This document shows positions 1 through 24,600 of a DNA stretch of 64,000 nt, one piece after another. Source of the stretch: Bryobacteraceae bacterium (GTDB lineage: Bacteria; Acidobacteriota; Terriglobia; Bryobacterales; Bryobacteraceae); the NCBI GenBank assembly GCA_035502635.1, contig DATJUG010000064.1, forward strand, positions 29,783 through 93,782. The letters run 5' to 3'. How positions within the stretch are numbered: the first letter of the stretch is position 1; every line of letters starts with the position of its first letter. The position numbers and the translations under genes were made by a program. A model generated the notes under the pieces. The model was not told the origin of the DNA, did no database searches, and saw only the letters and a list, made by a program, of their open reading frames with translations.

Positions 1-234
1 ATCGAGCTTTCGCCGCAGCTCGATTCGGAGAAACAAATTACCGCCTACTTACTCAGCTTGCGTAACATTGCGCTGTCATTCCTTGGCAAAAAGTTACCTA
101 CTTCCGGCGTGACTGATCTTGCGCTCTTTAGCGATTTCCGTAAAGAAGGTGGCGGCAGTTCGCTCAGTTGGTACGCCGCCTACTACACAGAACCTCCTGC
201 CGCACGGCTGCCGGACACTGAGGTTACAGGATAA
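1..234 (+). CDS. 3' end of an unidentified protein-coding gene (N-terminus lies left of the window)
   Basis: Frame 1 is open from base 1 to TAA at 232-234 (...SLSWYAAYYTEPPAARLPDTEVTG*). The stop lies only 2 nt before the GTG start of the giant ORF, suggesting one operon. No family recognised. Confidence 0.5.
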   Translation: MELSPQLDSEKQITAYLLSLRNIALSFLGKKLPTSGVTDLALFSDFRKEGGGSSLSWYAAYYTEPPAARLPDTEVTG

Positions 235-236
235 CT

Positions 237-3200
237 GTGGATCTCGACTACATCGCCCAGCAGTTGAACAACAACATCGACCCGGCCTCGCGAAGGCTCT
301 CGCTTCCCATCTCCGTCGATTTAGGCGCGCCCATCAAGCAACTATTCGAGCAGTTTCTGCTCGGCGGCCCGCTCATCCTGAACGAAGCGCTCGTCACCAT
401 GCAGCAGGGGCAGAATCGTGTCTTGCTGACCGGAACCGGCGCCTCATTCCCGTTCGACACCCTTACTATCCGAGCCTATTTCAGCGTCGCCCCGGCTGGC
501 GATGCCGCGGTGCTGGATCTCATAGGCAATGCAGGCAAGCTCTGGAATTTCGCGGTTGCGTTCCCGGCCTTGGCGCCCACCTTCATGCCGACGCTCTCGT
601 TCGCAAGCGCCGCATTCACCCTCCGTTCGATGGAAGAGCCGGATAAGCCCGCTGGCTTGTCTTTCGCCGGCATTTTGAAACTGGATGGCGCATTATCTTT
701 TCTCCAGCCACTGCTCAATGAAACTCAGCTCGATGTCTCCTCGCCCATCACTCTCGAAGCGAACCTCCCCAAAATCAGGCTGACTGAGAATTACTTCCTG
801 GTTACTCCGGGCATCGGAACCTTCGCTCCGTTTCATGTACGGCTCGTCGCCGCCACGGACCCCACCCCGGATGGCGATATCATTCCTACCTTCGGGATTC
901 AAGGCGTGCTCACTTTTGGCGACGCCCGCGAGCTGAGCATCGGCTACGACTTACTCACAATTATTCCCGGCTATTACCACTTCGTCGCCGATTTTCGCGA
1001 AGCCGATCTTACTTTCGGAAATCTGGCGTCGCTGTTGAACGGATCGGATCCAGCACCCGTTTTGCCCGCTGTCTTCTCCGTCCTGAATAACTTCGAATTC
1101 AAGACCTGGGAGATCTATATTGCGGCATCCGGCTTCAGCGTGGCCAATGTCGTCATTTCCGTCGGTACGAAGCAGCCCTGGGAGCTGCTGCCCAACCATC
1201 TCCTGGATCTGAACCTCGATTATCTGACGCTCAACGTGCAGAACACCGGCAAGCTAGCCGTGTACTGCGACGTGCAGGCCACCTTCACGCTCAAGCAGCA
1301 GGAAGTACCGGCTGTAATCATGCTGCGAGCCAGTTACCCCGGCTTTAAGTTCTCCGGCAAGCTGGTCAGCGGCTACCTCGATATTCCCTATCTAATCGGC
1401 CGCTATATCAGCGAAGCCGCCGCTGAGTTAGTTCCTACTTCGCTCCGCGTCGACGGCTTATATCTTGCTATCGACCCGCCCACATCGTCTTACGCATTTA
1501 GCATCGACACTAAAGCCGAATGGGTGATCAAAATCGCCGACGCCAGCTTCACCGTTCTGGAGATTTCGTTCGACATCAGCCGTGTCGCACAGGCAACCAG
1601 CGGCCGTTTCAAAGGCGCCTTCCGTCTCGGCGCCATTGAGCCGCCCATTCTGGTGGATGTTGCTGCGGGCTACACGACGGCGGGCGGCTGGACCTTTGAA
1701 GGCGGTCTCACCGAAGGCAGTAAGGTCACTTTCAACGACATTCTCAACAGTTACTTCCCCGACTGGAACCTCGAGAGCATGATCGTTACACTCGAGGCCT
1801 TCCGCGTCGAGTATTCCGCGAAAACAGGCGCCTATCGGTTCCAGATCAAGGTCCTGTGGGTCCTCGAATTCCTCGGCTGGACGGCCACTCTGCATGGCGA
1901 GTGCGATATCGCCTACACCGAACAGAAAACGTATAAGGGATTCATTCGCGGCACACTGGACATCGAAGGATTTCTGCTTTCGGCCGAAGTTACTTACCCG
2001 GATAAGACCGTCACCTTGAAATTGGGTGACCTGAAGGTCGAATTTAAAGGCGACCCGGTAGTAATCACCATCTCCTTCCCCAGCATCACGCTTGGCGAAA
2101 TTATCACCACCTTAGTAACTGCCGCCATCGGCGAAAACATTACCCTCCCCGCGCCTTGGAATGTCCTGAACCTGATTAGTCTCAAAGATCTTGTGCTCAG
2201 GATTACCCCCAGCAAGCAAATCTTCGAGGCGGAATACTCGCCGAATCTCAACCTCGGCTTCGTCTCCATCGAGAAATTCGTCCTGCGCTACACCGGCGGC
2301 CAAAACTCCGCCAGCAGCAAGGTCGAGTTCGCAATCACCGCCGGCTCTTTCCTCGGCCAACCCATCGACCCCGCCGACCCGGTCAAGATGAACGTGCTCG
2401 AGCCGGCCTCTGCGCCCAAGGTGCCTGGCGCCGGCGACACAGTTTTCACGTTGCATTTCCTCGCCATCGGCCAACGCGTCGCCCTCAAAGATCCGGTCAA
2501 TGCGAAGACCGTGACCCAAGCCATGGAGATCGTTGAAAAAGCCTTCTACAAACAGCAAGACGAGGAGGGCTCGCCCGTCGCCGGCACCGGCCTCGTTCCC
2601 AGTGAGCGCAGCTCCTGGATCTTCGCCATCCGCGCCGAAATTCTCAGTTCCATCACCATCCGCGCTCTGTTCTTCGATCCCGATCTCTACGGCCTCGGCA
2701 TCAACGTCGGCGGCACGAAGTTCCCCAGCTTCACTGGCCTCAACTTCGAGATCCTCTACAAGAAGATCAACGAGAACGTCGGAGTCTACCAGATCGAGCT
2801 GAAACTCCCAGACGTGATGCGGCAGCTCGAATTCGGAAGCGTGTCCATCACGCTGCCGATCATTGCGCTCGAGATCTACACCAACGGCGATTTCCTCATC
2901 GACTTCGGCTTCCCGGCTAACGGCGATTTCACGCGCTCCTTCGCGATTCAGGTGCTGCCGTTCACCGGCGCAGGCGGCTTCTATTTCGGAGTGCTCAGCA
3001 ACGCCACCGCCAAGCGCCTCCCGCCCGGGCCGCTCTGCGGCAGCTTCAGCCCGGTTATCGAAGCCGGCGTCGGCCTGCGCATCGGCTTGGGGAAAGACAT
3101 CAATAAGGGCGTTTTGAAGGCTGGCCTCAGCCTCACCGTGCAGGGCATCATCGAAGGAACGCTGGCCTTCTATAACGACAACCTGAAACGCCCTGAATAC

Positions 3201-6200
3201 GCCGCCGCCGTCTTCTATTACATCTCCGGACAAGTCTCGATCGTCGGCCAAATCTATGGCGAGATCGATTTCGCAATCATCTCCGCGCGCCTCGACGTGC
3301 TCATCCGCATCGGCGTCACGTTCGCGATGCAGGCGCTCGACCCCATCGTGCTCGGCTTCTTCGCCGAAATCACCGTCAGCGTGTCGGTCAAGATCAATCT
3401 TGGGATCTTCAAGATCACCATCTCGCTATCCTTCTCGGCCACCTTCCGCGAATCGTTCACCATCGGCAGTGTTTCGCCCAAGCCTTGGTACATCTGCCCC
3501 GGCTCCACGCAACCACGGGCCATCCGTGCGCGCCGCACCGCGCTCGATGTCTTCGATCCCGGCTGCGACGACGTTGAGCTCGTTTTCCATCCTGTCACCA
3601 GAACAACGCCGCAGGATGTGCAGGTTCTCTTCGTTCCGCAGTTCACCCCGGCGTCGGATGTCAATGGCGGCGTTCAACCGTCCAAAGCCCGCTGCGTGGC
3701 CGCCTTCAACGTCGAGACTTCGACCGGTAAGTCATCTGCCGTCGAGACCGCTTTCGACCGGCTCGCGCGCGGAGTTTTCCTGTGGACACTCGCCGCTTAT
3801 CTGTTCCCGGAACCAAAGAGCACGCCGGAAGAAGATGTGCTCTCGCAAGAGATCACGCTCACGCAACTCGAGAAGCTCTATTGCGCTCTCACCCGTACCT
3901 CCGCAAGCCTGCTCTTCGATGAAACCCAGCTCACCGGCTTCTTCGCCGCCTATTTCAAGTTCATCGTCAGCCTGGCCGAGGAGCAAGCGGACGCCCGCAT
4001 CACCACCATCTTCCCGGCTCTCACGCCATTCATCCTCGTGCCGCCCACCCTGCCGGAAATTCCGTTCGCTTCCTGGCGAATGGTCTCGAGCCAATACCTG
4101 GCCGCCATCAAGAAATACTTCGAGCCCATGCAGGTGGATTACCTCTCGCCCAAAGAGAAGGCCGCGAAAGCCGCGCGCGCCGCCGCAGCGCCGGCTGACC
4201 CCGGCGACAAGTCGCTTGCCTGCTGGATGATGCTCGATTACTTCACTCTCCTTGTGAAAGACACCACGCAAGCCGCCATCGACACCATGACCGCCATGAC
4301 CACTACGGTCGGCGAAGGCGCCACCCTCGGGTCCATCCTGGCGCGCTATCCGGGTTCGGGCGCAACGGTCGAAGAGCTGGTCTGGGCAAATGCCACCACG
4401 CCGCTTTCTCTCAACGCCGGAGTTCGGCTGGGCGCACCCATGGGTGCTGAATACCGCGTCGACGCGAACGGCCCGAACACGCTATTCGGAATCGCGCGTC
4501 ATCACCATATCCGGCTGAACGAATTGGCGCGCACGAATCAGGACGTTCCCGGTCTCTTCCCGGCCGGCCGCCGCATCTGGTTTCCACTCATCGATTCCAT
4601 CAAAGTTTCAGACCTGCTCGCCGCCATGCAAGACCAAAGCGCGTTCCAGCACCTGGCTGGAAGCGCCTCGCGCGTGCTGCTCTCCGGGTTGCGTCCCCCT
4701 GCTCCCAACGACGGCCCGCTCACACCGCTGTATGAGCTGAATGGCCAGCAGTTTGATGCATCCACGCTCCAGGTTGGCAGCTCCTTCAGCCTGAAGATCA
4801 ATGCCGATCTGAAGTGGCTCGTCTTTGCTAAGCCCTCCTCGGACCCGCTCAGTCTCCCCGTCGTCATCAGTGCCGACGAAGCCAACGTTATTGCGGCATT
4901 CAACACCGCCAAGCTCGATCCGCAGATTCAATTGCTCCAGCCGTTGGATCTCTACAAAGTGGAACCGAAGTCATTCGGAGTCGGCAACGCGACTCTCTGG
5001 CAACTGGCCGAGGACCCGGTCAACCGCTCGATCTGGATGCTCCCCCAGAATCTGCAAACCATGCTCTTCGACAATCCCGATGCACGACCCCAAGTTGAGC
5101 TTTGGGAATCCATCCAGAAGAACCCCAACCAGGCTCCGCAACCAATCAAAGTTCCCTCCGCCGACTACACCTGGACATCGCGCATCAATGTCGTGGTGCG
5201 CAGAATTCGCACCCGTACTGGCGACCTGGTGCCCAACACCTATGAAATGCGCGGTGCCGGTGTCGCATTTAGCACGGTGCTGCAAAACTTGCTCACTTAC
5301 GCCACGCCAGATCCGGTAACCGATCTCCATATCCTTTATCTGCCCGACCCGCTCGGCGATTTCCAGGGCTTGCTCTCGCCCGCCGCAACAGCAACCCAAA
5401 TCTTCCTTCTGCAGACGAATCTCTCGACCGAAGCCAACCCGGAACTGTCCTTTGCGAGCGCGGCAGCCGTCACGAACACGTCGTATATCACCGGCATGAC
5501 CGCTCTGGACGTCCTCAAATATGTCTGGGAGGGGAGCGTCGTGCGCTCGGGCGGCTACTATCTCTACTACAAGCAAGTCCCCAGCGGCGAGGGCCTGCCC
5601 GAATACTTATTCAACGACACCGAAGAGACCACCCTCACTCTGCTCGTCACCTTGAATCCTGCCGCGCCCGGATTGTGGCCGTACATGAACAGCCTCCTTA
5701 TGACGCGCGAAGTGGATATTCAGAACACCGCGTTCTATCTGAAGGCGATCGGTCCGGAGTTAGTCGAACGCGTTCCAACCATAGGCCCAGGTTTGAACGG
5801 TTTCAACGTTCAGCGCACCACGCCCGTAACTCCGGACCTCAACGGCGCCGTTACTGCCCAGGTCGCTACGCCATTTGTAAGCGAACTCTATAATCTCCTT
5901 AATTTCCGCATTGCAGACTTTGGCGGATTCGATAGCAGCCCGTTCGCCATGCCGGCCACTCCCGCCGATGTCACCGATCCCGATCCGGATCCCAACGCCA
6001 ATCGCACTCCGCGCCTCGAAACGGACCATTGGAATTATCAGTCCGTCGCGCCCATTTACCGTTTCTCGAAAGTAATTCCGCCGCCACCGTCGGATTTACC
6101 CGCTCCGCTGCCGTCCCCGGAAAAGAATCCCTATCGCGGAATCGGCTCCGATGTACGCTTCGAGATTTCCTGGCTCGATCTGTTCGGCAACCGCATCGAG

Positions 6201-9056
6201 ACCCAGAACACCGGGCTGCAGCCCTCGCTCGATATCCCGGTCAGATACTCCGACAATCTGATTCCGGTGGACAAGTGGCCGGCTGTTTCTACCGATTTCC
6301 TCGTGAAAAAAGGCGCTTCGGCTGCGCAGCTCGATGTTACCTTGCGCTTCGACGCCTGCCGTTATCTCCCACCCTCCAGCGGCGGAACAAACGAGGACTA
6401 CAAGAGCATCGCCCTCGCCGACCGCCCGACTTATGAACTGATTTATTATCAACTTACTCAAACCGGCGTCTCTGCCACTATTTCCTCCACCTTCGATTCT
6501 GCCCAGACGCCGTGCATCAAGCCGCTGGTCGAATGTGCCGTATCCATCTATCAGTTCTTGAATGCCATTGTCGAGAATTCATCCTGGACAATTCCAGCCG
6601 ATAAAGGGATTTCTTTCACGGCAAAAGATACTAATCCTCTGCAGTATTATCAGTTGCTGGTTTCTATTTCCATTGAGCGTCCGGCTGCCCAAATACACGC
6701 CCAATTAAAGGACCCGCCGTTTGATCCCGTGCGCCGCGTCAGCAGCTTCGTTCCGGCCCAGTATACGGAAACACCCACGGATGATCCGAAGGAAAAGCCG
6801 CTTACTTTGCGCGCTTTCGTGGAACAACTGGAGCTCGCCTTCCCGAACTTGGCTGTGGCGACCGCCAAACCGCGCGCCTCCGCGAATGCCGAAAACACCC
6901 TGAAAGAGATTTGGATGGTGCGCTTCGGCGGCACAAACGGCATCGTCTACGATGTCAAACAGCCCGCCTTTTACTTCGCGCCCCTGCCGCTCTCGCGCAC
7001 TCTCCAGTCCACCGAAGTTTCCCTCTATTCGTACAGCAGCGGAAAACCCATCGATCAGGGCACGCTGCAGTCCTATTCGTTCTCGGGCGTCGATATGGAC
7101 CTGCTCGCGAAAACGTTCCTGGAAACCGTCGACCTGGTTCTTTCTCCCCAATTTGTAGTGCCCGCGTGGCTGGCGGTGAATGAAGAGGAACCGAATGCGT
7201 CGGGCCCGAACGCGATTGAACGAATACTCAGCTACAAGAAGGATCTCGCGGGCGCCATCGCTGGAGGGATCGCGCCCGTGCTGGTCGAAGAGCAAAGCAC
7301 GGGAAAAAATCTCGAAGCCGCAACCGCGAAACTACGCCAGCAGCTCCTGATCCGGCTCTCCGACCTGTATTCGGTGCATTGCATCGTGCAGTTCAACGTC
7401 TCCATCGACTCCAGCTTCACTGATGAAGCAACTGCACCGCGCCTGTTCGGCCATCCGGGACCGAAGCAGGCCATCCCGGCGCCCGGCGCGCAAACTCAGG
7501 ACTATTCATTCTCCACGGCGGAAATATCGCTATGCAACAAGCCCGGCGCTTCGCTGCTGACATTCCTGTTTGGCACGCGCGATCCTTCGGCCGCCAAGAA
7601 CGTCACGCTGGAGATGGACTATCAGCGCTCCAACCTGCAGCACGGATTCTCTACCATTCCCGGCATTCCGGACTACGAAGCTTCTTCGTGGCTCGCCTTC
7701 TATCAATTGGAGCAAGCCGAACCCGCGGGGGCGTCACAGAGCGGCCGCACCGATCTCGGCCTCGTCACGGTGCCCGTCCCGCTGCGCGCTTATCCGCCGC
7801 CGCCTGTGCTTCTGGAGCAAAGAGGATTGCCGCAGGAAGCGGTCGCGCTGCACGCGTCCGGCAATCCCGTGCTCGAACTTACGAAACGCTGGGTTTTTGA
7901 ATTTAATTGGACTTACGACCTCGCCGAGCAAGACACCCTCTATAGCGATGTTCAGTTCAACGTGCCTGGCGGAAAAGCAGCCTTCCTCAAAGCCGTACCA
8001 ACCTTGGATCTGCTTGGCGCGCTTCTGCAGTTCTCAACCGTGTATGCTGATGTCCTCCGCGACCTGGAAGATTCGTTGATCGCGACACCCAATTCGGAGC
8101 TTGCGACCGTAACCCTGAATTCTTTAGCCTGGCTAGTCCAGTTAGTCTCCGCGGCGTCGTCCGCATGGCCCCAGGCAAAGACCGCGCTGTTTGTGTTGCC
8201 CGAAGTGCTGACCGCGAACTTGCGGGTCACGCAAGCGCCCGCTACGGTGTCGGGTGTTGATTACCCGGTATTTTCCGTTACCGTGGAGTGCGAAACCGAT
8301 GGCCGCCTCTTGGAACCTACCGTAAGCCTGCCCGGTTTCAAGGCCGTACCTTTGCCCAAGCTTGCTGCCAGTAACACGACTAAGACCTATGCGTATCTGG
8401 ACGCGCAGGCTGAATACTTGCCTTACAGCGCAGGCGCCGCGATTCACACCCGTGGAATTCGTTTCCAGAACATGAATATCCTCGACGAGCAAACCGGTTG
8501 GGCCGGTCTTCACATCCGCCGCAACGAAGTCCTGGTCGAAGGCTATGAAACTAACCCAAAGTTCGTCTATGAGACGCCCGACCTACGCTTCGCCTCGGTG
8601 CTGACCCCGCTCCTGAATCCGGATGTGCCCATTAACATCGCCGATTCCAGCGCCTCGAAACCGGCATCGGACAAACTCTACCATTATCTGTTTAACTTCC
8701 TTTCGGATTTCTTCGGCAGTGCGCCTGACGCTGGCGGCACAATCAAACTGGGCGGAAGTTTTGTCTATGATTTGAACGCCGGGACGGGCCCGGTGCCTCT
8801 GCCCGTTTCCTTGCCCGTCTGGATGACTCTTCCAACTCAAGTCACTACCGGCACAGCCATGCCCCCGGAAGTCACCATTCAGGAATTCTCCCGTTCGCTT
8901 GCCGATTTTATTGTCCCGTGGTTTGCGGACCGGGGCCTTACAGGCCGCATCGGCCAGCTTGCTGTCCAGCTATCTCTTTATTCCGCTCTCGCCGGTAGTA
9001 ACCTGCCAGTCCTCGAATTACAACAATTATATTTAGAAACGGAGTTGATATGGTAA
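237..9056 (+). CDS. Giant hypothetical protein (2,939 aa), function unknown
   Basis: Uninterrupted 8.8-kb ORF, which is very unlikely by chance. GTG start 2 nt after the upstream stop, and its stop is embedded in the start region of the next gene. No N-terminal signal peptide, no Walker A, no HExxH, no YD/RHS, Ig or other repeat family visible by eye. The N-terminal third looks beta-rich and the protein contains Pro-rich linkers. Confidence 0.9.
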   Translation: MDLDYIAQQLNNNIDPASRRLSLPISVDLGAPIKQLFEQFLLGGPLILNEALVTMQQGQNRVLLTGTGASFPFDTLTIRAYFSVAPAGDAAVLDLIGNAGKLWNFAVAFPALAPTFMPTLSFASAAFTLRSMEEPDKPAGLSFAGILKLDGALSFLQPLLNETQLDVSSPITLEANLPKIRLTENYFLVTPGIGTFAPFHVRLVAATDPTPDGDIIPTFGIQGVLTFGDARELSIGYDLLTIIPGYYHFVADFREADLTFGNLASLLNGSDPAPVLPAVFSVLNNFEFKTWEIYIAASGFSVANVVISVGTKQPWELLPNHLLDLNLDYLTLNVQNTGKLAVYCDVQATFTLKQQEVPAVIMLRASYPGFKFSGKLVSGYLDIPYLIGRYISEAAAELVPTSLRVDGLYLAIDPPTSSYAFSIDTKAEWVIKIADASFTVLEISFDISRVAQATSGRFKGAFRLGAIEPPILVDVAAGYTTAGGWTFEGGLTEGSKVTFNDILNSYFPDWNLESMIVTLEAFRVEYSAKTGAYRFQIKVLWVLEFLGWTATLHGECDIAYTEQKTYKGFIRGTLDIEGFLLSAEVTYPDKTVTLKLGDLKVEFKGDPVVITISFPSITLGEIITTLVTAAIGENITLPAPWNVLNLISLKDLVLRITPSKQIFEAEYSPNLNLGFVSIEKFVLRYTGGQNSASSKVEFAITAGSFLGQPIDPADPVKMNVLEPASAPKVPGAGDTVFTLHFLAIGQRVALKDPVNAKTVTQAMEIVEKAFYKQQDEEGSPVAGTGLVPSERSSWIFAIRAEILSSITIRALFFDPDLYGLGINVGGTKFPSFTGLNFEILYKKINENVGVYQIELKLPDVMRQLEFGSVSITLPIIALEIYTNGDFLIDFGFPANGDFTRSFAIQVLPFTGAGGFYFGVLSNATAKRLPPGPLCGSFSPVIEAGVGLRIGLGKDINKGVLKAGLSLTVQGIIEGTLAFYNDNLKRPEYAAAVFYYISGQVSIVGQIYGEIDFAIISARLDVLIRIGVTFAMQALDPIVLGFFAEITVSVSVKINLGIFKITISLSFSATFRESFTIGSVSPKPWYICPGSTQPRAIRARRTALDVFDPGCDDVELVFHPVTRTTPQDVQVLFVPQFTPASDVNGGVQPSKARCVAAFNVETSTGKSSAVETAFDRLARGVFLWTLAAYLFPEPKSTPEEDVLSQEITLTQLEKLYCALTRTSASLLFDETQLTGFFAAYFKFIVSLAEEQADARITTIFPALTPFILVPPTLPEIPFASWRMVSSQYLAAIKKYFEPMQVDYLSPKEKAAKAARAAAAPADPGDKSLACWMMLDYFTLLVKDTTQAAIDTMTAMTTTVGEGATLGSILARYPGSGATVEELVWANATTPLSLNAGVRLGAPMGAEYRVDANGPNTLFGIARHHHIRLNELARTNQDVPGLFPAGRRIWFPLIDSIKVSDLLAAMQDQSAFQHLAGSASRVLLSGLRPPAPNDGPLTPLYELNGQQFDASTLQVGSSFSLKINADLKWLVFAKPSSDPLSLPVVISADEANVIAAFNTAKLDPQIQLLQPLDLYKVEPKSFGVGNATLWQLAEDPVNRSIWMLPQNLQTMLFDNPDARPQVELWESIQKNPNQAPQPIKVPSADYTWTSRINVVVRRIRTRTGDLVPNTYEMRGAGVAFSTVLQNLLTYATPDPVTDLHILYLPDPLGDFQGLLSPAATATQIFLLQTNLSTEANPELSFASAAAVTNTSYITGMTALDVLKYVWEGSVVRSGGYYLYYKQVPSGEGLPEYLFNDTEETTLTLLVTLNPAAPGLWPYMNSLLMTREVDIQNTAFYLKAIGPELVERVPTIGPGLNGFNVQRTTPVTPDLNGAVTAQVATPFVSELYNLLNFRIADFGGFDSSPFAMPATPADVTDPDPDPNANRTPRLETDHWNYQSVAPIYRFSKVIPPPPSDLPAPLPSPEKNPYRGIGSDVRFEISWLDLFGNRIETQNTGLQPSLDIPVRYSDNLIPVDKWPAVSTDFLVKKGASAAQLDVTLRFDACRYLPPSSGGTNEDYKSIALADRPTYELIYYQLTQTGVSATISSTFDSAQTPCIKPLVECAVSIYQFLNAIVENSSWTIPADKGISFTAKDTNPLQYYQLLVSISIERPAAQIHAQLKDPPFDPVRRVSSFVPAQYTETPTDDPKEKPLTLRAFVEQLELAFPNLAVATAKPRASANAENTLKEIWMVRFGGTNGIVYDVKQPAFYFAPLPLSRTLQSTEVSLYSYSSGKPIDQGTLQSYSFSGVDMDLLAKTFLETVDLVLSPQFVVPAWLAVNEEEPNASGPNAIERILSYKKDLAGAIAGGIAPVLVEEQSTGKNLEAATAKLRQQLLIRLSDLYSVHCIVQFNVSIDSSFTDEATAPRLFGHPGPKQAIPAPGAQTQDYSFSTAEISLCNKPGASLLTFLFGTRDPSAAKNVTLEMDYQRSNLQHGFSTIPGIPDYEASSWLAFYQLEQAEPAGASQSGRTDLGLVTVPVPLRAYPPPPVLLEQRGLPQEAVALHASGNPVLELTKRWVFEFNWTYDLAEQDTLYSDVQFNVPGGKAAFLKAVPTLDLLGALLQFSTVYADVLRDLEDSLIATPNSELATVTLNSLAWLVQLVSAASSAWPQAKTALFVLPEVLTANLRVTQAPATVSGVDYPVFSVTVECETDGRLLEPTVSLPGFKAVPLPKLAASNTTKTYAYLDAQAEYLPYSAGAAIHTRGIRFQNMNILDEQTGWAGLHIRRNEVLVEGYETNPKFVYETPDLRFASVLTPLLNPDVPINIADSSASKPASDKLYHYLFNFLSDFFGSAPDAGGTIKLGGSFVYDLNAGTGPVPLPVSLPVWMTLPTQVTTGTAMPPEVTIQEFSRSLADFIVPWFADRGLTGRIGQLAVQLSLYSALAGSNLPVLELQQLYLETELIW

Positions 9057-9847
9057 CTCGACTCGTCTGGCTGGCCATACTATTCGCCGCCATCCAGCCA
9101 CTCTACGCCCAAATACTTGTCAGCTCCCAGAACACGTTGCATCTCAGCGATAGCACACGAGGAGCAACCAAGCGCAAGACCATCCTGGATCAGAATGACA
9201 ATTACAATGTCAACCTTCTGCAAGAAGTCATGAAAACTGCGGATCTGGATGATGTAACTCCAGGCAAATACTATTGGAAGGAAAGCGATCTAAAGGGCAA
9301 ATCAAGCTACAAAGAAACATACGGGATTATATACAGCGACTATCTGACAGCCAATGGAGAAATCGAGGACTACCCGGACGATAACGACGATTTCGCTAGG
9401 CCGCCCAGCGGTGTGATGCTCAAGATGAAGTCAGGCGACTACGTCTGGTTTATCGACTTTCATGCTATTTGGGGCAAAAGCGCAAGCCTGCGCGAGGACG
9501 AGGCCACAGAAATGGCCGAGGTCTATAAATACTTCAAGAATCTGGAGATCAACAAGATAAAAACCACCAAAATTGTTATCGCGGGCGACTGGAATCTGGA
9601 TGCGGACAATGACGGCTTCGACGCCTTGAAAGAACTGGATAAGGGGATATTAGAGGTAACTCCTAACATGGAGACCAGCCTCACAAGGTCAGGCGATCCT
9701 TCGCAGCCCTATGATCACTTCATCGCGGAAAAAGGCAAGCTGACTGGTTGCGTTCTCACGCCCATACCTGACGATGAAGATTCGGAATGGTGGCGGGACA
9801 ATGTCTCGGATCATCGTGGAATCAAGTGCACTTACACGTATAAGTAG
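9050..9847 (+). CDS. Secreted DNase I-like nuclease (endonuclease/exonuclease/phosphatase, EEP, superfamily)
   Basis: N-terminal Sec signal (MVTRLVWLAILFAAIQPLYA/Q). Blocks align colinearly with bovine DNase I catalytic motifs: NLLQEV (LIQEV), SSYKETY (NSYKERY), DFHA (ALHS), AGDWNLD (MGDFNAD), YDHFI (YDRIV), VSDHRGI (ISDHYPV). GGAG sits 5 nt upstream of the ATG. The ATG overlaps the giant ORF stop (ATGGTAA). Confidence 0.85.
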   Translation: MVTRLVWLAILFAAIQPLYAQILVSSQNTLHLSDSTRGATKRKTILDQNDNYNVNLLQEVMKTADLDDVTPGKYYWKESDLKGKSSYKETYGIIYSDYLTANGEIEDYPDDNDDFARPPSGVMLKMKSGDYVWFIDFHAIWGKSASLREDEATEMAEVYKYFKNLEINKIKTTKIVIAGDWNLDADNDGFDALKELDKGILEVTPNMETSLTRSGDPSQPYDHFIAEKGKLTGCVLTPIPDDEDSEWWRDNVSDHRGIKCTYTYK

Positions 9848-9854
9848 GGTGTTT

Positions 9855-10724
9855 ATGCGCGGACTATACTTAGGCATCTCTTTCTGCCTTGCGCTGCGCG
9901 TTTCAGCCGCGCCACCGGTTGCCACAGGCGTATCGTTCACCGATCGCTTTATAGCAACTCCCAACCGGCATGGCCCCGTGATGGTCTATATTGCCGCTAA
10001 TTCCTTTCTCATGGGCAGCAGTCCAGAGGAATTCGGTTACACGCCATACGAACTGCGTCATCCCGTGCAGCTCTCAGCTTTCTCAATCGGTAAGTACGAA
10101 GTCACAAACGCCGAGTTTTGCCGTTTTCTGAATAACCAAGGGAACCAGATCGACGGCGGAATCCCTTGGATTCTAACCGGTCGATCGCATCGTTGTCGCA
10201 TTCAGCAGCACGGCGCCGTCTTCACGCCGGTCCCCGGTTTTGCGAACCACCCGGTCGTGACCGTATCCTGGCTCGGCGCGCGCGCTTACTGCCGGTGGCT
10301 GTCCCAGCAGACCGGCCGCAATTATCATCTCCCGACCGAAGCCCAGTGGGAATGCGCCGCCCGCGCCGGCGTCCGCACCTTGTGGGATTGGGGGAACGAG
10401 TTCGCGCCGGGCCGCCTCAATTGGCGCGGCTATTCGCTCGATCCGGCAACTACTCCGGTCGGCTCCTTCCCCCCGAACGCGTGGGGAATTTGCGATATGC
10501 TCGGCAACGTTTGGGAGTGGGTGCTGGATGCTTTCGATCCGGAGTTCTATTTATATTCGCCACTGAAAGATCCGGTCTTTTTCAAGGACGAGTGCTTGAC
10601 TCCGGGTATCCGCGGCGGAAGCTTCCGCGATAGCCTCGAATTCTGCCGTCCGGGGTACCGGGTCAACATGTGGTGGTGGGGGGATTATGACAGCATCGGT
10701 TTCCGCGTTGCTTCTCAGGCTTGA
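9855..10724 (+). CDS. Secreted SUMF1/EgtB/PvdO (FGE-sulfatase fold) domain protein
   Basis: Motifs HPVVTVSW, AxAYCxWL, YHLPTEAQWECAARAG, GNVWEWVLD and RGGSF are typical of PF03781-type domains. Start chosen at ATG 9855 (MRGLYLGISFCLALRVSAAPP signal-like N-terminus) rather than 9774, which would overlap the nuclease gene. Only one Cys follows RGGSF (EFCRPGY), so the FGE catalytic Cys pair is absent. Confidence 0.85.
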   Translation: MRGLYLGISFCLALRVSAAPPVATGVSFTDRFIATPNRHGPVMVYIAANSFLMGSSPEEFGYTPYELRHPVQLSAFSIGKYEVTNAEFCRFLNNQGNQIDGGIPWILTGRSHRCRIQQHGAVFTPVPGFANHPVVTVSWLGARAYCRWLSQQTGRNYHLPTEAQWECAARAGVRTLWDWGNEFAPGRLNWRGYSLDPATTPVGSFPPNAWGICDMLGNVWEWVLDAFDPEFYLYSPLKDPVFFKDECLTPGIRGGSFRDSLEFCRPGYRVNMWWWGDYDSIGFRVASQA

Positions 10725-12675
10725 GATTTTGGTTTGCGTCCTCGCTGCCGCGCTTCCCGCCGGGGCCGTTACTCATCTTGTGTATTCCCATTCTGGCCAA
10801 CCCGCCCAGGGGCTGTCCGTCGTCGAACGTGCGCCGGAACAGCGTGCCCGGCGCCTCGTCACCGACGAGCTAGGACAGGTCCCAACTCTCCAGGCGGGCA
10901 GCGAAGTCACCATTCGCGATTCGCGCACACACATCATCTTGATGCGCATCGCTCGCGGCGAATCGATTCCCGATCCCATCAAGGTTCCCGAGCTGATCCG
11001 CCTCTCCGGCACTGTTCAGGCCGATCCCGACGCGCGTACCGGCCTGATTGTCCGATACGGCGTTGGCAAGCGCATCACCGCCATGCAGCGATTGCAACGC
11101 AATTACGACCGGTACTCCACACTGAAAGCTCCCGAGAACACCTTCTTCGGTCTGGACCTGCCAACGGCTCCCGCTCATTGGTTAAACGCCACGGTCGATG
11201 CCGCCGGTCGCTTCACCACCAAATGGTTCCCCGCGGTCGACCATCCCATGATCGTCGCTCACAACGCTGCACGCGCGATCGGCATCAGCGACTTCACCCT
11301 CCCGAAAAGCTTCCGCACCGGCGAAACGTTCACGCTCGATCCGCTGTCCCTCACCCCTACCCGAAGTCTCACCATCCGCTATAACGCTCCGCCGAGTCCG
11401 ATAGCCCTTGATGCCGAGGTTTTTCTCAGGGATGTTCAAGTCGATCCGCAACAGCGGGAGTCCGTGCGCCGCGTCCTCAGTGTCCTCGATGCCATTGACC
11501 CGCGCCTGCTCGTCTTTGCAATCGGTTTACGGCCTTATAACATCGAAACGGGCGAAACGGTTATCTCCGGTCTTCCGCAATTTCGCGAAATGCAGGTAAG
11601 ACTGAAGGGCGCCTTCACTCCCGACACTCTCGATCGCACCGTCCAGTTCCAGGGCAATCAAGCCGATGTAGCCGTCTCCTCCGGCGATCTGTTTCCCCGC
11701 GGAGCCTCTACGCTCCTCAAAGGAGTTGTGGTGCTCGAAGATTCTTACGAGCCGGTCAAGGACGCCAAAGTCGTCTATAGCTGCTATCCGGAAAAGGTGG
11801 AAACCACCACGAATGAAAACGGCGAATTCAGTATTCCGGGTGCCTGCGCCGATCGCGATGTCACTTTCTTCGTTACCGCTTCGGATTCTCTTCAACCGGC
11901 TCGCTTCCCTCCTGTGCAGGTGCGCAAGCGAATTCAACCGAAACGGACCTCGCAGCCACTCGTCATCACGCTCCCGGTTCCGCCGCAGCCGGGCCGCTCG
12001 CCTGCGCCGCACGCGGTCGTCTCCATCGGCCCTCAGGAGCGTTTCCAGGCCGAACACGAGCGGCCGCACCTTCAGGCCCTGGAAGGCTCGCCGTTAGCGG
12101 GACTTTTTCGCGGCTCCGCTGTTCCCCCCGGAGCCTATTTCCTTCAGGACTCCCAATATGACGAGGGACCCATCGTTTACGTCTACGAGGACAACATGGA
12201 GGGCGAAATCCCCGACAACGTTGTCAAGGCCACTTGGGAATACCAGTTCGGTTCCAAGATCAGGCTCACCGTCTCAACGACTGGCACTTGGCATGTGCTT
12301 CTCGCCGTCTCTGCGTTCATGGTCTACACCGACGATGCTGTCGATTTGATCGCAAATCAGGAGAAGGAAGTCACTTTGAAGCCGCTGCACTTTGTCAGGT
12401 TTGGTAGCTGGTTGAGCGTCGTCTCAGCCTACCTTCCCCGGCCCGCTTCTAATATCCCGGTTTATTTTGCCAGTCCCGCCGTGGATCCCGATCCCACTGA
12501 GATTGATACTAATGAACTGGGAGTTGCCAAAATGGGCCTGCTCGATACCGACACCATACACGTATTTGTCAGTGATAAGAGGGCGGGCTATTTCGATTGT
12601 GACGTCAAGCTCGATTTTCGCCTTGATGCCAACGTCTTACTCTTGCCCACACCCAGCACGCCCTGCCCGAAATAG
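10687..12675 (+). CDS. Secreted hypothetical protein (662 aa) with a carboxypeptidase-regulatory-like beta-sandwich segment
   Basis: Hydrophobic N-terminus (LLLRLEILVCVLAAALPAGA). Segment VVLEDSYEPVKDAKVVYSCYPEKVETTTNENGEFSIPG resembles CarboxypepD_reg repeats. No catalytic motif seen. The ATG at 10687 overlaps the previous gene by 38 nt; an alternative TTG at 10729 would remove the overlap. Confidence 0.65.
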   Translation: MTASVSALLLRLEILVCVLAAALPAGAVTHLVYSHSGQPAQGLSVVERAPEQRARRLVTDELGQVPTLQAGSEVTIRDSRTHIILMRIARGESIPDPIKVPELIRLSGTVQADPDARTGLIVRYGVGKRITAMQRLQRNYDRYSTLKAPENTFFGLDLPTAPAHWLNATVDAAGRFTTKWFPAVDHPMIVAHNAARAIGISDFTLPKSFRTGETFTLDPLSLTPTRSLTIRYNAPPSPIALDAEVFLRDVQVDPQQRESVRRVLSVLDAIDPRLLVFAIGLRPYNIETGETVISGLPQFREMQVRLKGAFTPDTLDRTVQFQGNQADVAVSSGDLFPRGASTLLKGVVVLEDSYEPVKDAKVVYSCYPEKVETTTNENGEFSIPGACADRDVTFFVTASDSLQPARFPPVQVRKRIQPKRTSQPLVITLPVPPQPGRSPAPHAVVSIGPQERFQAEHERPHLQALEGSPLAGLFRGSAVPPGAYFLQDSQYDEGPIVYVYEDNMEGEIPDNVVKATWEYQFGSKIRLTVSTTGTWHVLLAVSAFMVYTDDAVDLIANQEKEVTLKPLHFVRFGSWLSVVSAYLPRPASNIPVYFASPAVDPDPTEIDTNELGVAKMGLLDTDTIHVFVSDKRAGYFDCDVKLDFRLDANVLLLPTPSTPCPK

Positions 12676-12935: not shown

Positions 12936-13967
12936 ATGCGAACTTATTCCTTATCCGGGCGCTCGAGACGCCCTGTTCTGCCAGAAGACCCAGATGGATT
13001 GGCCGCCAGGCTGAAAGATCTGCTCGTCGGTCAGCCCGAAGCCATCGACACCATCATTCCGTATATCCAGATGCACCAGGCTGGCCTCGCGCCTGAAGGC
13101 CGTCCGGTCGGCGTGGTCTTGTTACTTGGCCCCACCGGCACTGGAAAAACGCGTACCGTGGAAGCGCTCGCTGAAGTCCTGCACGGCAGCAGCAAAAACC
13201 TGCTCAAGGTGGATTGTGGCGAATTTCAGATGGAGCATGAAGTTGCCAAATTGATCGGCGCGCCTCCCGGATATCTGGGCCATCGCGAAACTCAGCCCAT
13301 GTTGACGCAGGCCAAAGTCAACAGCGTCGCCACCGAAAGCAGCGATATCTCGCTCGTCCTTTTCGATGAAATCGAAAAAGCCGCGCCTTCCATGACGCGC
13401 CTGCTGCTGGGCATTCTCGACAAAGCCACCCTGCGCCTCGGCGACAACACAACCGTCAACTTTGAGCGTACGCTGATCTTTCTCACCAGCAACCTGGGCG
13501 CGAAATCCATTCAGCGGCTCAATAAGCCCGATTTCGGCTATGAAGCCATGCTGCCGCCGCCGGCCATGGAAGATATGGTCAAGCTTCAAAGCGTCGGCAT
13601 GTCGGCCGTGCGTCACAAGTTTTCACCGGAATTTGTAAACCGCATCGATTCGGTCATCACCTACAAGCCTCTCGACCGCGATGCTTGCGAGATCATCCTG
13701 GATCAAATCTTCTCCAACTTCTCGCGGCTGATCAATCACCGCCTCGGTCTGCGCGGTTTCCGATTGCAGTGCACCATATCCGGGCGCAACCTGCTCCTCG
13801 ACATGGGCATCAGCGTCGAGTTTGGCGCGCGCGAGCTAAAACGCACGGTTCAGCGTAGTTTCATTCAGCCCGTGGCGGCGCTGGTCGCGCAGGGCCAGAT
13901 CCCGCCCGGCAGTACCGTAATGCTCGACGCCAAGAACGGCGAGTTCAACATCCTTCTGCGGCAATAA
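12936..13967 (+). CDS. Stand-alone single-ring AAA+ ATPase of the ClpA/ClpB D2 type (343 aa)
   Basis: Walker A GPTGTGKT, pore loop GAPPGYLGH, Walker [11 protein letters not shown], sensor-1 LTSNLG, sensor-2 GARELKR, and a D2-small-like C-terminus. Colinear with the D2 module of the bona fide ClpB at 37125-39764. No N-domain, D1 or coiled-coil middle domain. GAGAGAGG Shine-Dalgarno upstream of the ATG. Confidence 0.85.
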   Translation: MRTYSLSGRSRRPVLPEDPDGLAARLKDLLVGQPEAIDTIIPYIQMHQAGLAPEGRPVGVVLLLGPTGTGKTRTVEALAEVLHGSSKNLLKVDCGEFQMEHEVAKLIGAPPGYLGHRETQPMLTQAKVNSVATESSDISLVLFDEIEKAAPSMTRLLLGILDKATLRLGDNTTVNFERTLIFLTSNLGAKSIQRLNKPDFGYEAMLPPPAMEDMVKLQSVGMSAVRHKFSPEFVNRIDSVITYKPLDRDACEIILDQIFSNFSRLINHRLGLRGFRLQCTISGRNLLLDMGISVEFGARELKRTVQRSFIQPVAALVAQGQIPPGSTVMLDAKNGEFNILLRQ

Positions 13968-13970
13968 ACA

Positions 13971-14954
13971 TTACGGCGCCCATTTCGTGGATTCAGTCAT
14001 CGGCGCGGCACCGGCAGTGTTCACCGTCATCGTCACGTCCACCTCCCGGCCCGCGCCATCATATGCAAGGCTTCCCATCTTCAGCTCGTCTGCGCCCAAC
14101 TTGATTTCTCGCCGGCTCGAGCCGTCCGTTATGGTCACCGTCGCCCTCGACGCCGGGCCCATCTGCCGGGCATCGTGGTTCCACGAAATCTTCAATAAGT
14201 GGTCGTTGCTTGTCACCTTGAGATCCAATTGCTTCGAGCCGGTAGCGAGCCAGTCCGGCAAGGCCCCGCTTCCAGCCGCCAGCCAAAGAGCGATCAACAC
14301 GATCAGCAATCCCGCCAGCGCGGACCCGATGTACCAATTTCTCGGCGAACGCGCCCGCGATGCCGGCTCTTCGCCTTGCGGGGTTGCGGTCTCCGCTTCC
14401 ACCTCGGGAAGTGCTCTGAATTCAGCCTCGTTGAAGCGAAACTCACGGACCGATGCGTCCTGCGGTAATTCGCCGTTCTCGGCGATGAAGAATGCGGCCG
14501 TACGCGGCGCGCTCACTTGGATCAGCAGCAGAGCGTACGCCGCGCTCTTGAACTCTGTGGATAGCAGGCTTCGATCGGCCAACGACGGCTTGAGCGGCCC
14601 GGGACGGCAATGGCTGCGAAACATCCCTAATGCCGTCTTGTGCTGCGCCCGTGCCGCCTTCCGGATTTCTTCCCACCGCTTCAAATGATCGGGACCGGGA
14701 ATGTAGATTGCGCCATTCTCTGCGCCGCGCGGCATGATCTCGATAGCGTCTATCCGCAGCGTCGGTACGCGCCCGCCAAGCACGTTGCCGATCAGCACGC
14801 CGCCGATTTCGATGTCCAGTTTCTCTGTCCGGTTGAGCTCTTCAGAGATCTTCGAGACCAGATGCAGCTTCAACTCAATCGCAAACCGGGAGTGTTCCGG
14901 GCTCCATCGAATATAAAACGGCGACTCCTCGGCCGCCCGTGGCTCAGACGCCAT
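13971..14954 (-). CDS. Membrane-anchored protein with degenerate MPN/JAB-like N-terminal domain
   Basis: EIGGVLIG (the Glu-GG motif of MPN domains), then RSHCRPGPLKPSLAD where JAMM enzymes have HxHx7Sx2D, so the first His is replaced by Arg. One TM helix (WYIGSALAGLLIVLIALWLAAG) followed by a ~100-aa C-terminal beta-rich domain. The domain call is tentative. Confidence 0.5.
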   Translation of the reverse strand: MASEPRAAEESPFYIRWSPEHSRFAIELKLHLVSKISEELNRTEKLDIEIGGVLIGNVLGGRVPTLRIDAIEIMPRGAENGAIYIPGPDHLKRWEEIRKAARAQHKTALGMFRSHCRPGPLKPSLADRSLLSTEFKSAAYALLLIQVSAPRTAAFFIAENGELPQDASVREFRFNEAEFRALPEVEAETATPQGEEPASRARSPRNWYIGSALAGLLIVLIALWLAAGSGALPDWLATGSKQLDLKVTSNDHLLKISWNHDARQMGPASRATVTITDGSSRREIKLGADELKMGSLAYDGAGREVDVTMTVNTAGAAPMTESTKWAP

Positions 14955-21624: not shown

Positions 21625-24600
21625 ATGAATCGCTTTCTGGTACTTATGCTCTCAGTGCTTCTCCCTGTTGCAGCAGCACACGCCCAAACATTCCGAGGCG
21701 CAATTAATGGTACGGTGACAGATCCGTCAGGAGCTGTTCTTCCGAACGCGGCGGTGGTCGCAACGGAAAACGCGACCGGCGTGGCGTACAACAGCGTTAC
21801 CACGAACGACGGTGAGTTCTCGTTTCAAGACCTTCCCATAGGCGTATATACGGTGACGGTGACGTCCGCTGGGTTCGAGAAGGTCACGGTCTCAAAAATC
21901 AACGTAACGGCGGGAAACATTTATACGTTGCCGGTGAAGATGACGATGGGGCAGACGTCGACGACGGTGGAAGTTTCCGCCGCCGCAGTGCAGGTAGACA
22001 CCACGACAGCGACACAGAGTGACACCATTCCGACTACGGCTCTGCAGAACATTCCGCTGAACGGGCGCGATTTCTCGCAGCTTATCGCGGTATCGCCGGG
22101 CTACGGCGGATACTCAGTGGGCGGCTACGGGTCGTTGAATGGAACTCGCGCGAACCAGATGAACTGGCAGATCGACGGGACCGATAACAACGATCTTTGG
22201 CACAATATTCCAGCCGTGAATCAAGGTGGCGTGTCGGGGATCGCCGGCGTGGTTATGCCGATTGACGCTATCGATGAGTTTTCGGCGCAAACCCAATCGA
22301 ACGCGGAGAGCGGGCGCAATGCCGGGGGAACGGTAAACCTGACAATCAAAAGCGGCACTAATGAACTACACGGTAGTGCATATTATTACAACCGGAATGA
22401 GTTCTATGCCGCCAGTTCGCCATTTTTCGTACCCACTCCGGATTTCCCAAAAGCGCCGGAATTGCGCAATTACAACACCGGATTTACTATTGGCGGACCG
22501 ATCATCAAGGATAGGACGTTCTACTTCATCGGATTCGAGAGGCAAGATTACGTCTTCGGGCTGACCGGGCTTTCTACCGAGCCCTCGGCTGCCTGGGTAT
22601 CGCAAGCGACTAGCCTGCTGCATCAATTCGGCGTTCCTGAGAGCTCATTATCGGCGAGGCTATTGGCAACCCTTTGGCCGAGCTCGATTGTAAACTTGCC
22701 GGGCACTGTTAACAACTATTTCGCGACGGTTCCGGGAACAGGTTACAGCTATAACGGCGTGGTCAAAGTAGACCATAACTTCAATGACAAAGAGCATCTG
22801 TCGCTCCACTGGTTCGCAGGACAAGGAGACCAGACTCAGCCACCGGGCGCGAGCCTGGCGCTTGCCACCGCGAGCTCCAATCTTGGTTACTATTTCGAAG
22901 TCGCTCCGCTTCATGTGCAGAACTATTCCGCCGTTTTGAATTCGCTCTTTACGGCGCGACTGACTAACCAATTGCTTTTCGGCATCAGTTACTTTAACCA
23001 AGTTTTTCATGATGCCAACAACAGCTTCAACATGGCAGCTCTGGGCCTGGACCTGAGCCCGGATGCGACCAAGAACGGGCAACCCATCATGGGGGCTTCA
23101 AACATCGAGATCAGCGGGTTCGATCAAGCGGGAATTACGCCTCCCGAGGGGCGGAACGACGTTACGGGACACTTGACGGATATTGTTTCCTATGTTGCGG
23201 GAGCTCACCAACTGCGCTTCGGCGGCGAGGTTCGGCAGGGACGAGTGGACGAGTTCTACTTCCGAAGGTCAACCGGGGAGTTCACGTTCGACGGAACACA
23301 GGGACCGTGGGCGGCCTTCTGCACGTCGAATGCTACTGCGTCAGGTTGTAACAGCAATACTCTGGCACTGGCCGATTTCCTTGCTGGCGATGTGAGCACG
23401 TCCTCCATTGCGGTAGGTGATGCGGAGCGAAAGGTTGCGGTGAACGCGTTTGATTTCTTCGGACAAGATGACTGGCAGATTACCCCGAGGCTCAATCTGA
23501 ATTTCGGGCTGCGCTACGAATATTTCGGGCCGTTGCACAGCACGAATGGCGACGATCTCGGTGTCTTCGTGCAAGGAAGCGGCTTAGAGATTCAGGGGAA
23601 GGGCATCAACGCGGTCTTCCCGCCGGATAAGAACAACTTTGCTCCGCGCTTTGGATTCGCGTATCAGGCCGATAGCAGCGGCCATCTGGTGGTGCGCGGC
23701 GGGTTAGGCGTTTTCTATGACCAAATCAACATGAATCCCTTTCTGGACTTTCGCCCTCCCATCAGCGCGGCGGATGGGTTGGAAGACAATCCCATCGGGC
23801 CTCATGCGGTAGACAACTACAGCTTGAATAATTACAATTGGCAAACCGTCCAGGCGGGAGGAGCTTCCATTTTTCCAGGAGTTACAACTTGCTTGGGAAA
23901 TTTCACCACAGATCCCGGGTGCCTGAGTCCAAGTCAGACGTTCAACGTATTCTCAGTGAGTCAGAACTTTCGGGCGCCGTATTTCTTCAACTTCAACCTG
24001 AATGTCGAAAAGAGCCTGGGCAATTCAGCCGTCTGGCAGGTAGGTTACGTAGGCAGCGAAGGACGCAAGCTGTCCATTATGCAGAACATCAACCAGGACG
24101 GAGCGTTTGCGGCGCAATATCCCAACTACGGCTCGATCATCCAATTAAATAGCGACGGAACGTCCAACTATAATTCGCTGCAGACTACTTTGAAGATCAG
24201 GCAGTGGCACGGATTTAACGCGCAATTCGCCTACACTTATGCTCACGAATTAGACGAGGTAACGGAGTATCGCGGCGCAATCCCGCTGGACAGTTTCAAT
24301 CTGGCGCAAGAATACGCGAGCGGCGACTTCGATACACGGCATAATTTCACGGCGTTCTTCACGTGGGATATTCCGGGTTCGTCGCATCTCAAGCTGCTTA
24401 CCAGCGGCTGGCAGGTCAGCAGCGAAATCACGCTTCACAGCGGGCAGCCTTTCAACTTCGATGCCGGAACGCAGCGCCCAGGCTTGAATATTGTGTCGAA
24501 CCCGTTCGCGGGGGTTAGCCACACGTTCGTGAACGGAGTCGGTGAGCAATGGGTGAATCCGGCCGCTTTCTGTGTGCCGGGATCGGCGGGGTGCCCGGGA

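Follow-up and report, generated by a model that had tools for sequence, protein, structure and literature searches.

What is a single protein of 2,939 amino acids (aa), free of any export signal, doing directly ahead of a set of exported proteins? The question is raised by a 64,000-nucleotide (nt) stretch of DNA from Bryobacteraceae bacterium (GenBank assembly GCA_035502635.1, contig DATJUG010000064.1, positions 29,783 to 93,782 of the forward strand), hereafter the window, near the start of which the protein, hereafter the giant, is encoded. Our tentative answer, the most plausible of those weighed below, is that the giant serves a new complex, spread by horizontal transfer, as its scaffold and targeting subunit; the complex would bind the cell wall and be associated with a nuclease. 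We infer its function from the company it keeps; the operon family to which it belongs is probably conflict-related, with novel folds.

The giant gene is intact and widespread

The initial annotation of the window, made by eye, had proposed one uninterrupted reading frame for the giant, and this proves correct. The gene at 237..9056 (+) runs from a GTG start through 2,939 codons without interruption, and a metagenomic homologue of the same length is 94% identical. Further full-length homologues share 65, 63 and 46% identity, and together with the same-length relative they indicate that the gene is real and under selection. An artefact or a decaying pseudogene, for which only the unusual size and the GTG start speak, is refuted by this conservation and keeps practically no credibility: full-length homologues remain collinear from 94% down to ~25% identity, the operon partners are conserved as well, and the AlphaFold models are confident. 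A gap of 2 nt separates the GTG from the TAA of a partner gene upstream, and in the junction ATGGTAA the stop codon overlaps the ATG of a gene for a 265-aa endonuclease/exonuclease/phosphatase (EEP) protein. A scan for promoters and terminators gave signal at chance level. The lack of a signal peptide and of a transmembrane helix, also noted initially, was confirmed by a Kyte–Doolittle scan. A candidate Tat signal, SRRLSLP at aa 18–24, was rejected: the family consensus does not retain its RR, and the motif is not followed by a hydrophobic h-region.

The giant had also been called an orphan, which it is not. A word-indexed search returned 30 clusters of giants of 2,939–4,294 aa, an exhaustive phmmer search with the conserved core (aa 790–1090) recovered 1,206 representatives after clustering at 50% identity, 892 with E-values below 1e-30, and when each GTDB species was represented by a single genome, relatives turned up in 510 species from more than 10 phyla, among them Bacteroidota, Acidobacteriota, Chloroflexota, Actinomycetota, Pseudomonadota, Myxococcota, Planctomycetota, Bacillota, Spirochaetota and Verrucomicrobiota. 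A second profile search against a set of 5.8 billion proteins, in which the word prefilter was saturated, added almost no further members. No giant among the GTDB species representatives is more than 35% identical over the first 1,150 aa, which served as query, and the source species itself thus seems to be missing from that set. In NCBI the relatives are named ‘hypothetical’ or ‘LysM peptidoglycan-binding domain-containing protein’, and no account of the family came up when the open-access full-text literature was searched by keyword, protein accession and DUF6603.

A modular β-rich protein with degenerate LysM domains

We modelled the giant with AlphaFold2 as two tiles, tile 1 covering aa 1–1150 (from a 31-sequence alignment) and tile 2 aa 1740–2939. 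Tile 1 has a mean predicted local distance difference test (pLDDT) score of 77.5; its first 720 residues are 54% strand and 15% helix, and the N-terminal 1,085 residues are predicted to be almost all-β. Seven hairpin motifs that had been picked out by eye all occur where they were reported, within aa 75–700 (nt 459–2336), and each adopts a strand–turn–strand arrangement in the model. Self-BLAST of the giant detected no internal repeat, as was also the case for shuffled controls, so the periodicity is visible only at the level of profiles or structure. When family sub-alignments were compared with hhalign, aa 286–400 matched aa 401–512 with a probability of 97.5% (E 8e-12, 101 in-register columns) and aa 401–512 matched aa 513–650 with a probability of 80–92% (E 6e-7 to 1.5e-5), whereas control tiles from the rest of the giant stayed at or below 12%. 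The recurrence of the hairpins therefore exceeds chance, even though self-BLAST does not see it, and the significance of the matches between modules identifies it as a true tandem domain repeat.

Each module spans ~110–130 aa and is made of six to seven strands with a short helix at the end. Four of the seven hairpin motifs correspond to the first hairpin of successive modules. Copy 1 (aa 285–400; 1089..1436, +) and copy 3 (aa 514–650; 1776..2186, +) were delimited by hhalign against copy 2 (aa 402–511; 1440..1769, +), which is itself defined by hhalign and the AlphaFold2 model. A fourth, partial copy at aa 646–686 is weak (hhalign E of 0.014 only). The array is preceded by an N-terminal β-rich region (aa 1–284; 237..1088, +; pLDDT mostly 80–92 for aa 1–190), which has no significant hhalign match to modules 1–3 and may contain degenerate module copies, and in the model it is followed by a further β region (aa ~650–790). 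The number of N-terminal modules differs among relatives, the core beginning at residue ~215 in some and at ~700–1,100 in most. The modular β-rich scaffold that had been suspected is thus supported both by the near all-β character of the first 1,085 residues and by three homologous modules in tandem.

The region of highest conservation, which defines the family, is an all-β core at aa 790–1085 (2604..3491, +). It is rich in glycine and aromatic residues, carries the motifs FEILYKKI, VSITLP, IYTNGDFLxDFGFP and PFTGxGGFYFG, and ends in six strands of 18–23 residues (aa 935–1076 in the model). Identity over the core is 45–84% to representatives of many phyla, distant ones included. A predicted disordered linker (aa 1088–1150; 3498..3686, +; pLDDT 33–42) follows.

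The giant had been reported to lack any recognisable domain, but family-level comparison reveals a degenerate tandem LysM at aa ~1355–1450 (4299..4586, +). Pfam LysM (PF01476) scores only 13.6 bits on the whole protein and 19.5 bits on a tile, below the cut-off of 20.9, and a phmmer comparison of this region with PDB entry 4uz2 gives an E-value of 0.023. The family profile (A2), in contrast, matches six LysM proteins of the PDB as two tandem modules (E 3e-7 to 1e-3), including cell-wall hydrolases and the fungal effector Ecp6, and relatives carry 2–5 clear LysM copies and reach Pfam E-values of up to 9e-42 at the equivalent positions. By these comparisons the LysM of the window giant is homologous but degenerate, and it is predicted to bind glycan. 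We ran Pfam, NCBIfam, PHROGs and PADLOC on the whole giant, and Pfam also on five tiles; other than the sub-threshold LysM, no match was obtained, and phmmer and family-profile searches of PDB sequences likewise returned LysM only.

The C-terminal half was thought to be set apart by an acidic, proline-rich hinge. A Pro/Asp-rich segment is indeed present (aa 1911–1966; 5967..6134, +), but it is a linker only in part. Low model confidence is limited to aa ~1910–1930, so that the first part is disordered while the second is a conserved structured motif, PxPxxxPYxGxG, in which P1959, P1961, P1965, Y1966, G1968 and G1970 are invariant or nearly so (pLDDT 78–89). Moreover, the natural division of the protein lies elsewhere: on plasmid pART37 of Paenibacillus sp. 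37 the giant is encoded by two adjacent genes of 1,528 and 1,588 aa (locus L088, 18237–27595), and the split falls near aa ~1530–1570 of the window protein, away from the Pro-rich segment. The last ~970 aa (6135..9053, +) form a mixed α/β, multi-domain region; tile 2, with a pLDDT of 77 and a predicted template-modelling (TM) score of 0.60, contains several β-sandwich-like and helical-hairpin units. Throughout the family the C-terminus is conserved and collinear, not variable.

Foldseek searches of tile 1 against the PDB and BFVD, and of tile 2 against the PDB, gave no meaningful match and assign no known fold to either tile (TM-scores ≤0.12); tile 2 had no match in the PDB at E<1e-3. The best E-values, 2.7e-6 to 2e-3, belong to generic β-meander proteins (LptD, ApoB-100, SprA) or to immunoglobulin-like (Ig-like) adhesins. 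LptD/AsmA-like and adhesin identities were set aside because the matches are generic at such TM-scores. We nevertheless considered for the giant a role in bridge-like transport of lipids or glycolipids, as in AsmA, TamB, LptD or repeating-β-groove proteins. Its long antiparallel meander with a strands-then-helix periodicity would suit that role, and LptD is the top PDB match (E 2.7e-6) with ApoB-100 next; yet TM-scores are only 0.07–0.12 (0.08–0.12 for LptD), the matches are generic meander proteins, AsmA, TamB, DUF490 and LptD profiles find no match in Pfam or NCBIfam, an N-terminal membrane anchor is absent, and the family also occurs in monoderm Bacillota and Actinomycetota. We regard such a transporter as very improbable.

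A large partner and an interchangeable hydrolase

Gene context was surveyed at ~90 loci, mainly in their upstream flanks. In ~70 of 80 genome loci the gene directly upstream of the giant encodes a member of one partner family of ~1,100–1,200 aa, homologous from Acidobacteriota to Azospirillum and Bradyrhizobium, for which we found no Pfam match and, in a partner profile search, no relative among PDB sequences. The window holds the 3' end of this gene (1..234, +), namely the last 77 codons and the TAA, cut at the window edge; the encoded end, ...LSFLGKKLPTSGVTD...GGSSLSWYAAYY, agrees with the consensus C-terminus of the partner alignment (A4), and as judged from the sequence the translation of partner and giant is coupled. 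Three relatives (P0027, P0029 and P0030) have the partner joined to the giant as its N-terminal part, in place of the β-modules, and these fusions are strong evidence that the two function as one unit. About 30 loci carry a third large protein, of 400–1,330 aa, ahead of the partner. No giant and no partner has a signal peptide in any phylum. On pART37, the partner gene is preceded by one for a protein with a NAL1-like serine-protease domain, and an annotated metallophosphatase gene lies downstream.

A recognisable phosphodiesterase-type hydrolase accompanies the pair in 63 of ~84 informative loci. In most lineages it occupies a slot of 1–2.8 kb between partner and giant, whose content depends on the lineage: signal-less EEP proteins of ~400–490 aa (19 loci), the divergent EEP U357 of ~357 aa (11 loci; hhalign 99.7%), proteins of the metallo-β-lactamase (MBL) fold (18 loci), HNH endonucleases as a tandem duplicate (4 loci), a PLD-like protein (1 locus) or unidentified proteins of ~500–600 aa (5 loci). 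Lineages without a slot gene, among them the window lineage, Pseudomonas and sphingomonads, instead encode a short, signal-peptide-bearing EEP at another position of the operon (10 loci). All four hydrolase families (EEP, MBL, HNH and PLD) include nucleases, the HNH proteins unambiguously so; no adaptor domain common to the slot proteins of these families was found. Operons without a recognisable hydrolase are associated at seven loci (L055, L084, L086, L087, L089, L094 and L049) with an uncharacterised family of ~230–250 aa, sometimes present as two copies that flank the partner–giant pair.

In the window the hydrolase is the 265-aa EEP encoded at 9050..9847 (+), which has an N-terminal signal peptide, matches Pfam Exo_endo_phos (E 2.9e-4) and the NCBIfam MnuA-family membrane nuclease (E 5.7e-11), and has orthologues in loci L001 and L003. 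The next gene encodes an FGE-sulfatase-domain protein (9774..10724, +; Pfam FGE-sulfatase E 4e-50), which L001, L003 and the P0009, L048 and L083 loci have kept as well. Its longest reading frame, starting at 9774, overlaps the EEP gene by 74 nt; the true start is likely the ATG at ~9855, which is favoured because it yields a typical signal peptide, MRGLYLGISFCLALRVSA. A 662-aa exported protein with a CarboxypepD_reg-like domain (10687..12675, +) is the product of the last conserved operon gene in the window lineage. Neither it nor the 265-aa protein has a relative among PDB sequences. The three downstream products all begin with signal-like segments, and the trio recurs in the close relatives L001/L003 and in part in three further lineages. 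It was fair to call a cytoplasmically made giant placed before exported proteins unusual, and in L001/L003 the arrangement is conserved.

Fibre-like genes with collagen repeats and Kelch domains, lacking signal peptides, adjoin the operon in 16 loci, close relatives of the window among them. Their products contain 12–95 (GXY)n triplets with an interrupting conserved G-x-W-S-Y-x-I-L-N-G, followed by a Kelch β-propeller, and have the appearance of fibre or receptor-binding proteins. Such genes lie at 4806–6578 in L003 and at 19766–21601 in L006, and also in L008, L009, L014 and L058.

Several copies of the system reside on mobile DNA. The giant occurs on nine plasmids, including pBRH02 of Mycetohabitans rhizoxinica, and a fused partner-giant of Pseudomonas asiatica (JAODZC010000005.1, 10001–19894; L092) is cargo of a Tn7-like transposon. 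TnsA, TnsB, TniB and TniQ are encoded within 10 kb of the latter, and the neighbourhood also includes genes for an AAA protein, two S8 peptidases and an ion channel. In Azospirillum lipoferum 4B (FQ311870, 5482–20143; L005) a partner–EEP–giant operon is bordered by transposase genes, IS66 among them, and a type III-B (Cmr) CRISPR-Cas cluster lies ~3.7 kb away. The window operon itself is surrounded by chromosomal housekeeping genes. A phage origin of the giant was rejected: none of 50,697 phage records contains a member of the family, and among 2.9 million viral contigs (IMG/VR) 3 do.

A proposed cell-wall-binding scaffold in a possible conflict module

What the giant brings to the operon is a variable array of ~110-aa β-modules, a conserved core, at least one LysM and a ~1,500-aa C-terminal region without known fold. 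In the scheme that we tentatively favour, giant and partner would assemble in the cytoplasm into a large β-rich complex, a location suggested by the lack of an export signal on either protein in every phylum. By lysis or along an unrecognised export path, the complex would then arrive at a cell wall, either the producer's own or that of a target cell, and bind peptidoglycan or chitin through LysM. Complex and nuclease together would act as a weapon between organisms, a functional analogue and not a homologue of toxin complexes or tailocin-like particles. In the window lineage the EEP nuclease would be Sec-exported, along with the FGE-sulfatase protein and the 662-aa protein. An extracytoplasmic role is favoured by the conserved LysM, the collagen/Kelch neighbours, the Sec-exported trio and the lack of any nucleoside triphosphatase (NTPase) or sensor domain. 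Composition is a soft indication of an extracytoplasmic or structural role as well: giant and partner contain 17% charged residues, 0.7% His and 0.4–0.5% Cys, compared with 22–27% charged residues and 1.6–3.5% His in cytoplasmic housekeeping proteins of the same window.

Several observations count against this scheme. An export signal, a secretion system and a lysis cassette for giant or partner were looked for and not found, which leaves contact between LysM and the cell wall without an explained route, and no recognised immunity gene accompanies the cytosolic nucleases. The hydrolase is not universal: only uncharacterised small proteins are present in ~20 loci, and the fused P0027 gene stands alone among housekeeping (Suf) genes. 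Folds of pores, cages or injection devices are missing from the Foldseek matches of both AlphaFold tiles, and the compositional argument is soft. We thus rank an extracytoplasmic weapon or scaffold first, if tentatively. The more specific proposal that giant, partner and nuclease constitute a new class of weapon, made wholly of folds without solved relatives, assembled in the cytoplasm, released without a classical secretion system, docked to a target cell wall by LysM (in some lineages also by collagen/Kelch fibres) and delivering or accompanied by the nuclease, is possible but doubtful.

A surface structure without any role in conflict is the reading that we place second and consider unlikely. 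Giant and partner would here form a β-sheet surface layer, fibril, matrix or adhesion scaffold anchored in the cell wall, while the hydrolases remodel it or scavenge nutrients. The LysM domains and the surface-protein-like composition agree with this, as do the genes for a glycosyltransferase, collagen/Kelch proteins and exported proteins that adjoin the operon in the window lineage and a weak Foldseek likeness of the C-terminal tile to Ig-like adhesin domains (all E>1e-3). HNH endonucleases, however, are ill-suited to a structural role; the presence on plasmids and transposons and the patchy spread fit accessory conflict genes better; export signals are absent; and the core is 45–55% identical across diderm and monoderm phyla, whose envelopes differ. 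The swapping of unrelated stand-alone nucleases at one operon position without visible immunity genes speaks for a third possibility, that giant and partner form an intracellular anti-phage or anti-plasmid sensor or cage. Its nuclease would stay inactive until infection and then degrade DNA, its release leading to abortive infection or direct interference. Such a system would explain why giant, partner and slot nucleases have no signal peptides, and it would be at home in Tn7-like cargo, on plasmids, beside CRISPR-Cas and in a sporadic distribution over phyla. Set against it are the LysM conserved throughout the family, a composition unlike that of cytoplasmic proteins, the collagen/Kelch fibre genes adjacent in 16 loci, and the lineages, that of the window included, in which a signal-peptide EEP is found alongside exported FGE and 662-aa proteins. 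The usual sensor domains, NTPases and helicases among them, are absent, and many copies lie among housekeeping genes. The giant, the 265-aa EEP and the 662-aa protein have no match in PADLOC-DB 2.0, in a scan that covered these and the FGE protein but not the partner; the match of the FGE protein to JetD (E 0.074) is not credible. Defence thus comes third and seems less likely still, and the cell-wall-binding, nuclease-associated scaffold is the reading that we carry forward.

Other genes of the window and a related locus

Downstream of the operon, a stand-alone 343-aa AAA+ protein corresponding to the second ATPase domain of ClpB/ClpV is encoded at 12936–13967 (+; AAA_2 E 2.8e-36), with a match to PADLOC PDC-M37B (E 2.4e-19). 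Tail-to-tail with it, at 13971–14954 (−), lies the gene for a 327-aa protein with one hydrophobic helix and a weak JAB match (E 1.3e-3). Since both are absent from L001/L003, they probably lie outside the operon of the giant, and they could be a separate candidate defence pair. Further on, 21625–24885 (+) encodes a 1,086-aa outer-membrane protein (CarboxypepD_reg and OMP_b-brl_4). Together with the G+C content of ~58% and the closest homologues, this protein suggests a diderm source of Acidobacteriota type.

Outside the family proper, the 1,616-aa protein P0186 (L095/L096) shares the N-terminal module array, with an hhalign probability of 96.8% to aa 233–596 of the giant and a phmmer E-value of 3e-34 to two giants. 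It differs in having DUF6603 (PF20248, function unknown) at the position of the core and in lacking LysM and the C-terminal 1,800 aa. DUF6603 is not supported as the identity of the core itself: it has no match at E≤10 on tiles of the giant, and hhalign of the P0186 DUF6603 against the core gives a probability of 0.3%. The P0186 gene lies between uncharacterised genes for proteins of 564 and 683 aa, and the locus may represent a sister system.

Comparison with known systems

If our reading is correct, a module of 12–25 kb, present in at least 510 species and more than 10 phyla, is built around core proteins of ~1,100 and ~3,000–4,300 aa that lack characterised relatives and a recognisable fold. 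Whether it is a toxin-delivery particle or a defence system, it would add a new type of bacterial conflict and new protein folds. Its carriers include cultivable Pseudomonas, Burkholderia/Mycetohabitans, Chitinophaga, Streptomyces, Sorangium and Paenibacillus, and the interchangeable nucleases and the LysM offer two experimental handles. For annotation, thousands of giant reading frames now called ‘hypothetical’ or ‘LysM domain-containing’ would, with their neighbours, become a definable operon family.

LysM (PF01476), the only family membership supported for the giant and represented there by a degenerate, sub-threshold copy, covers ~3% of its sequence. LysM proteins are normally exported by means of a signal or else belong to the lysis or tail proteins of phages; neither applies to the giant. 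Among nuclease-based defence systems, Lamassu, Zorya and Hachiman resemble the present one in joining a conserved scaffold or sensor to nucleases of different families on mobile elements, and in Zorya a peptidoglycan-binding subunit is coupled to a nuclease. The giant system differs from them in having no ATPase, SMC, helicase, membrane motor or PADLOC match, and in some lineages its nuclease is exported. Polymorphic, Rhs and CdiA toxins are unlike it in another way, as the giant is without RHS, FHA and TPS domains (Pfam), its C-terminus is conserved and its nucleases are encoded by separate genes. Tailocins and extracellular contractile injection systems share with it signal-less structural proteins, LysM components, nearby collagen-repeat fibre genes and low charge. 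Genes for tube, sheath, baseplate (gp25/gp6-like), spike or tape-measure proteins, however, were found neither in the window operon nor in 12 annotated related contexts, and the giant has no PHROG match and is absent from phage genomes.

Tc toxins offer a further parallel. Both systems are multi-gene, have large signal-less subunits (1,000–4,000 aa) rich in β-hairpins and an enzymatic payload, and show patchy horizontal spread in soil and host-associated bacteria. The TcA subunit, however, is a helical shell with a channel, whereas the N-terminal 1,085 residues of the giant are all-β; the payload of the giant system is a separate gene and not a C-terminal region as in TcC; and LysM is present. 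The Tc domains VRP1, neuraminidase-like, TcA_TcB_BD, SpvB, TcdB and RHS/YD were not found in the giant (Pfam and NCBIfam) or in the partner and the 1,332-aa component (Pfam scan only), and no Tc subunit appears in the top-50 Foldseek lists of either tile. Any likeness would be one of function: on the more specific and doubtful proposal given above, giant, partner and nuclease would form a weapon analogous to Tc toxins or tailocins that has been overlooked in more than 500 bacterial species.

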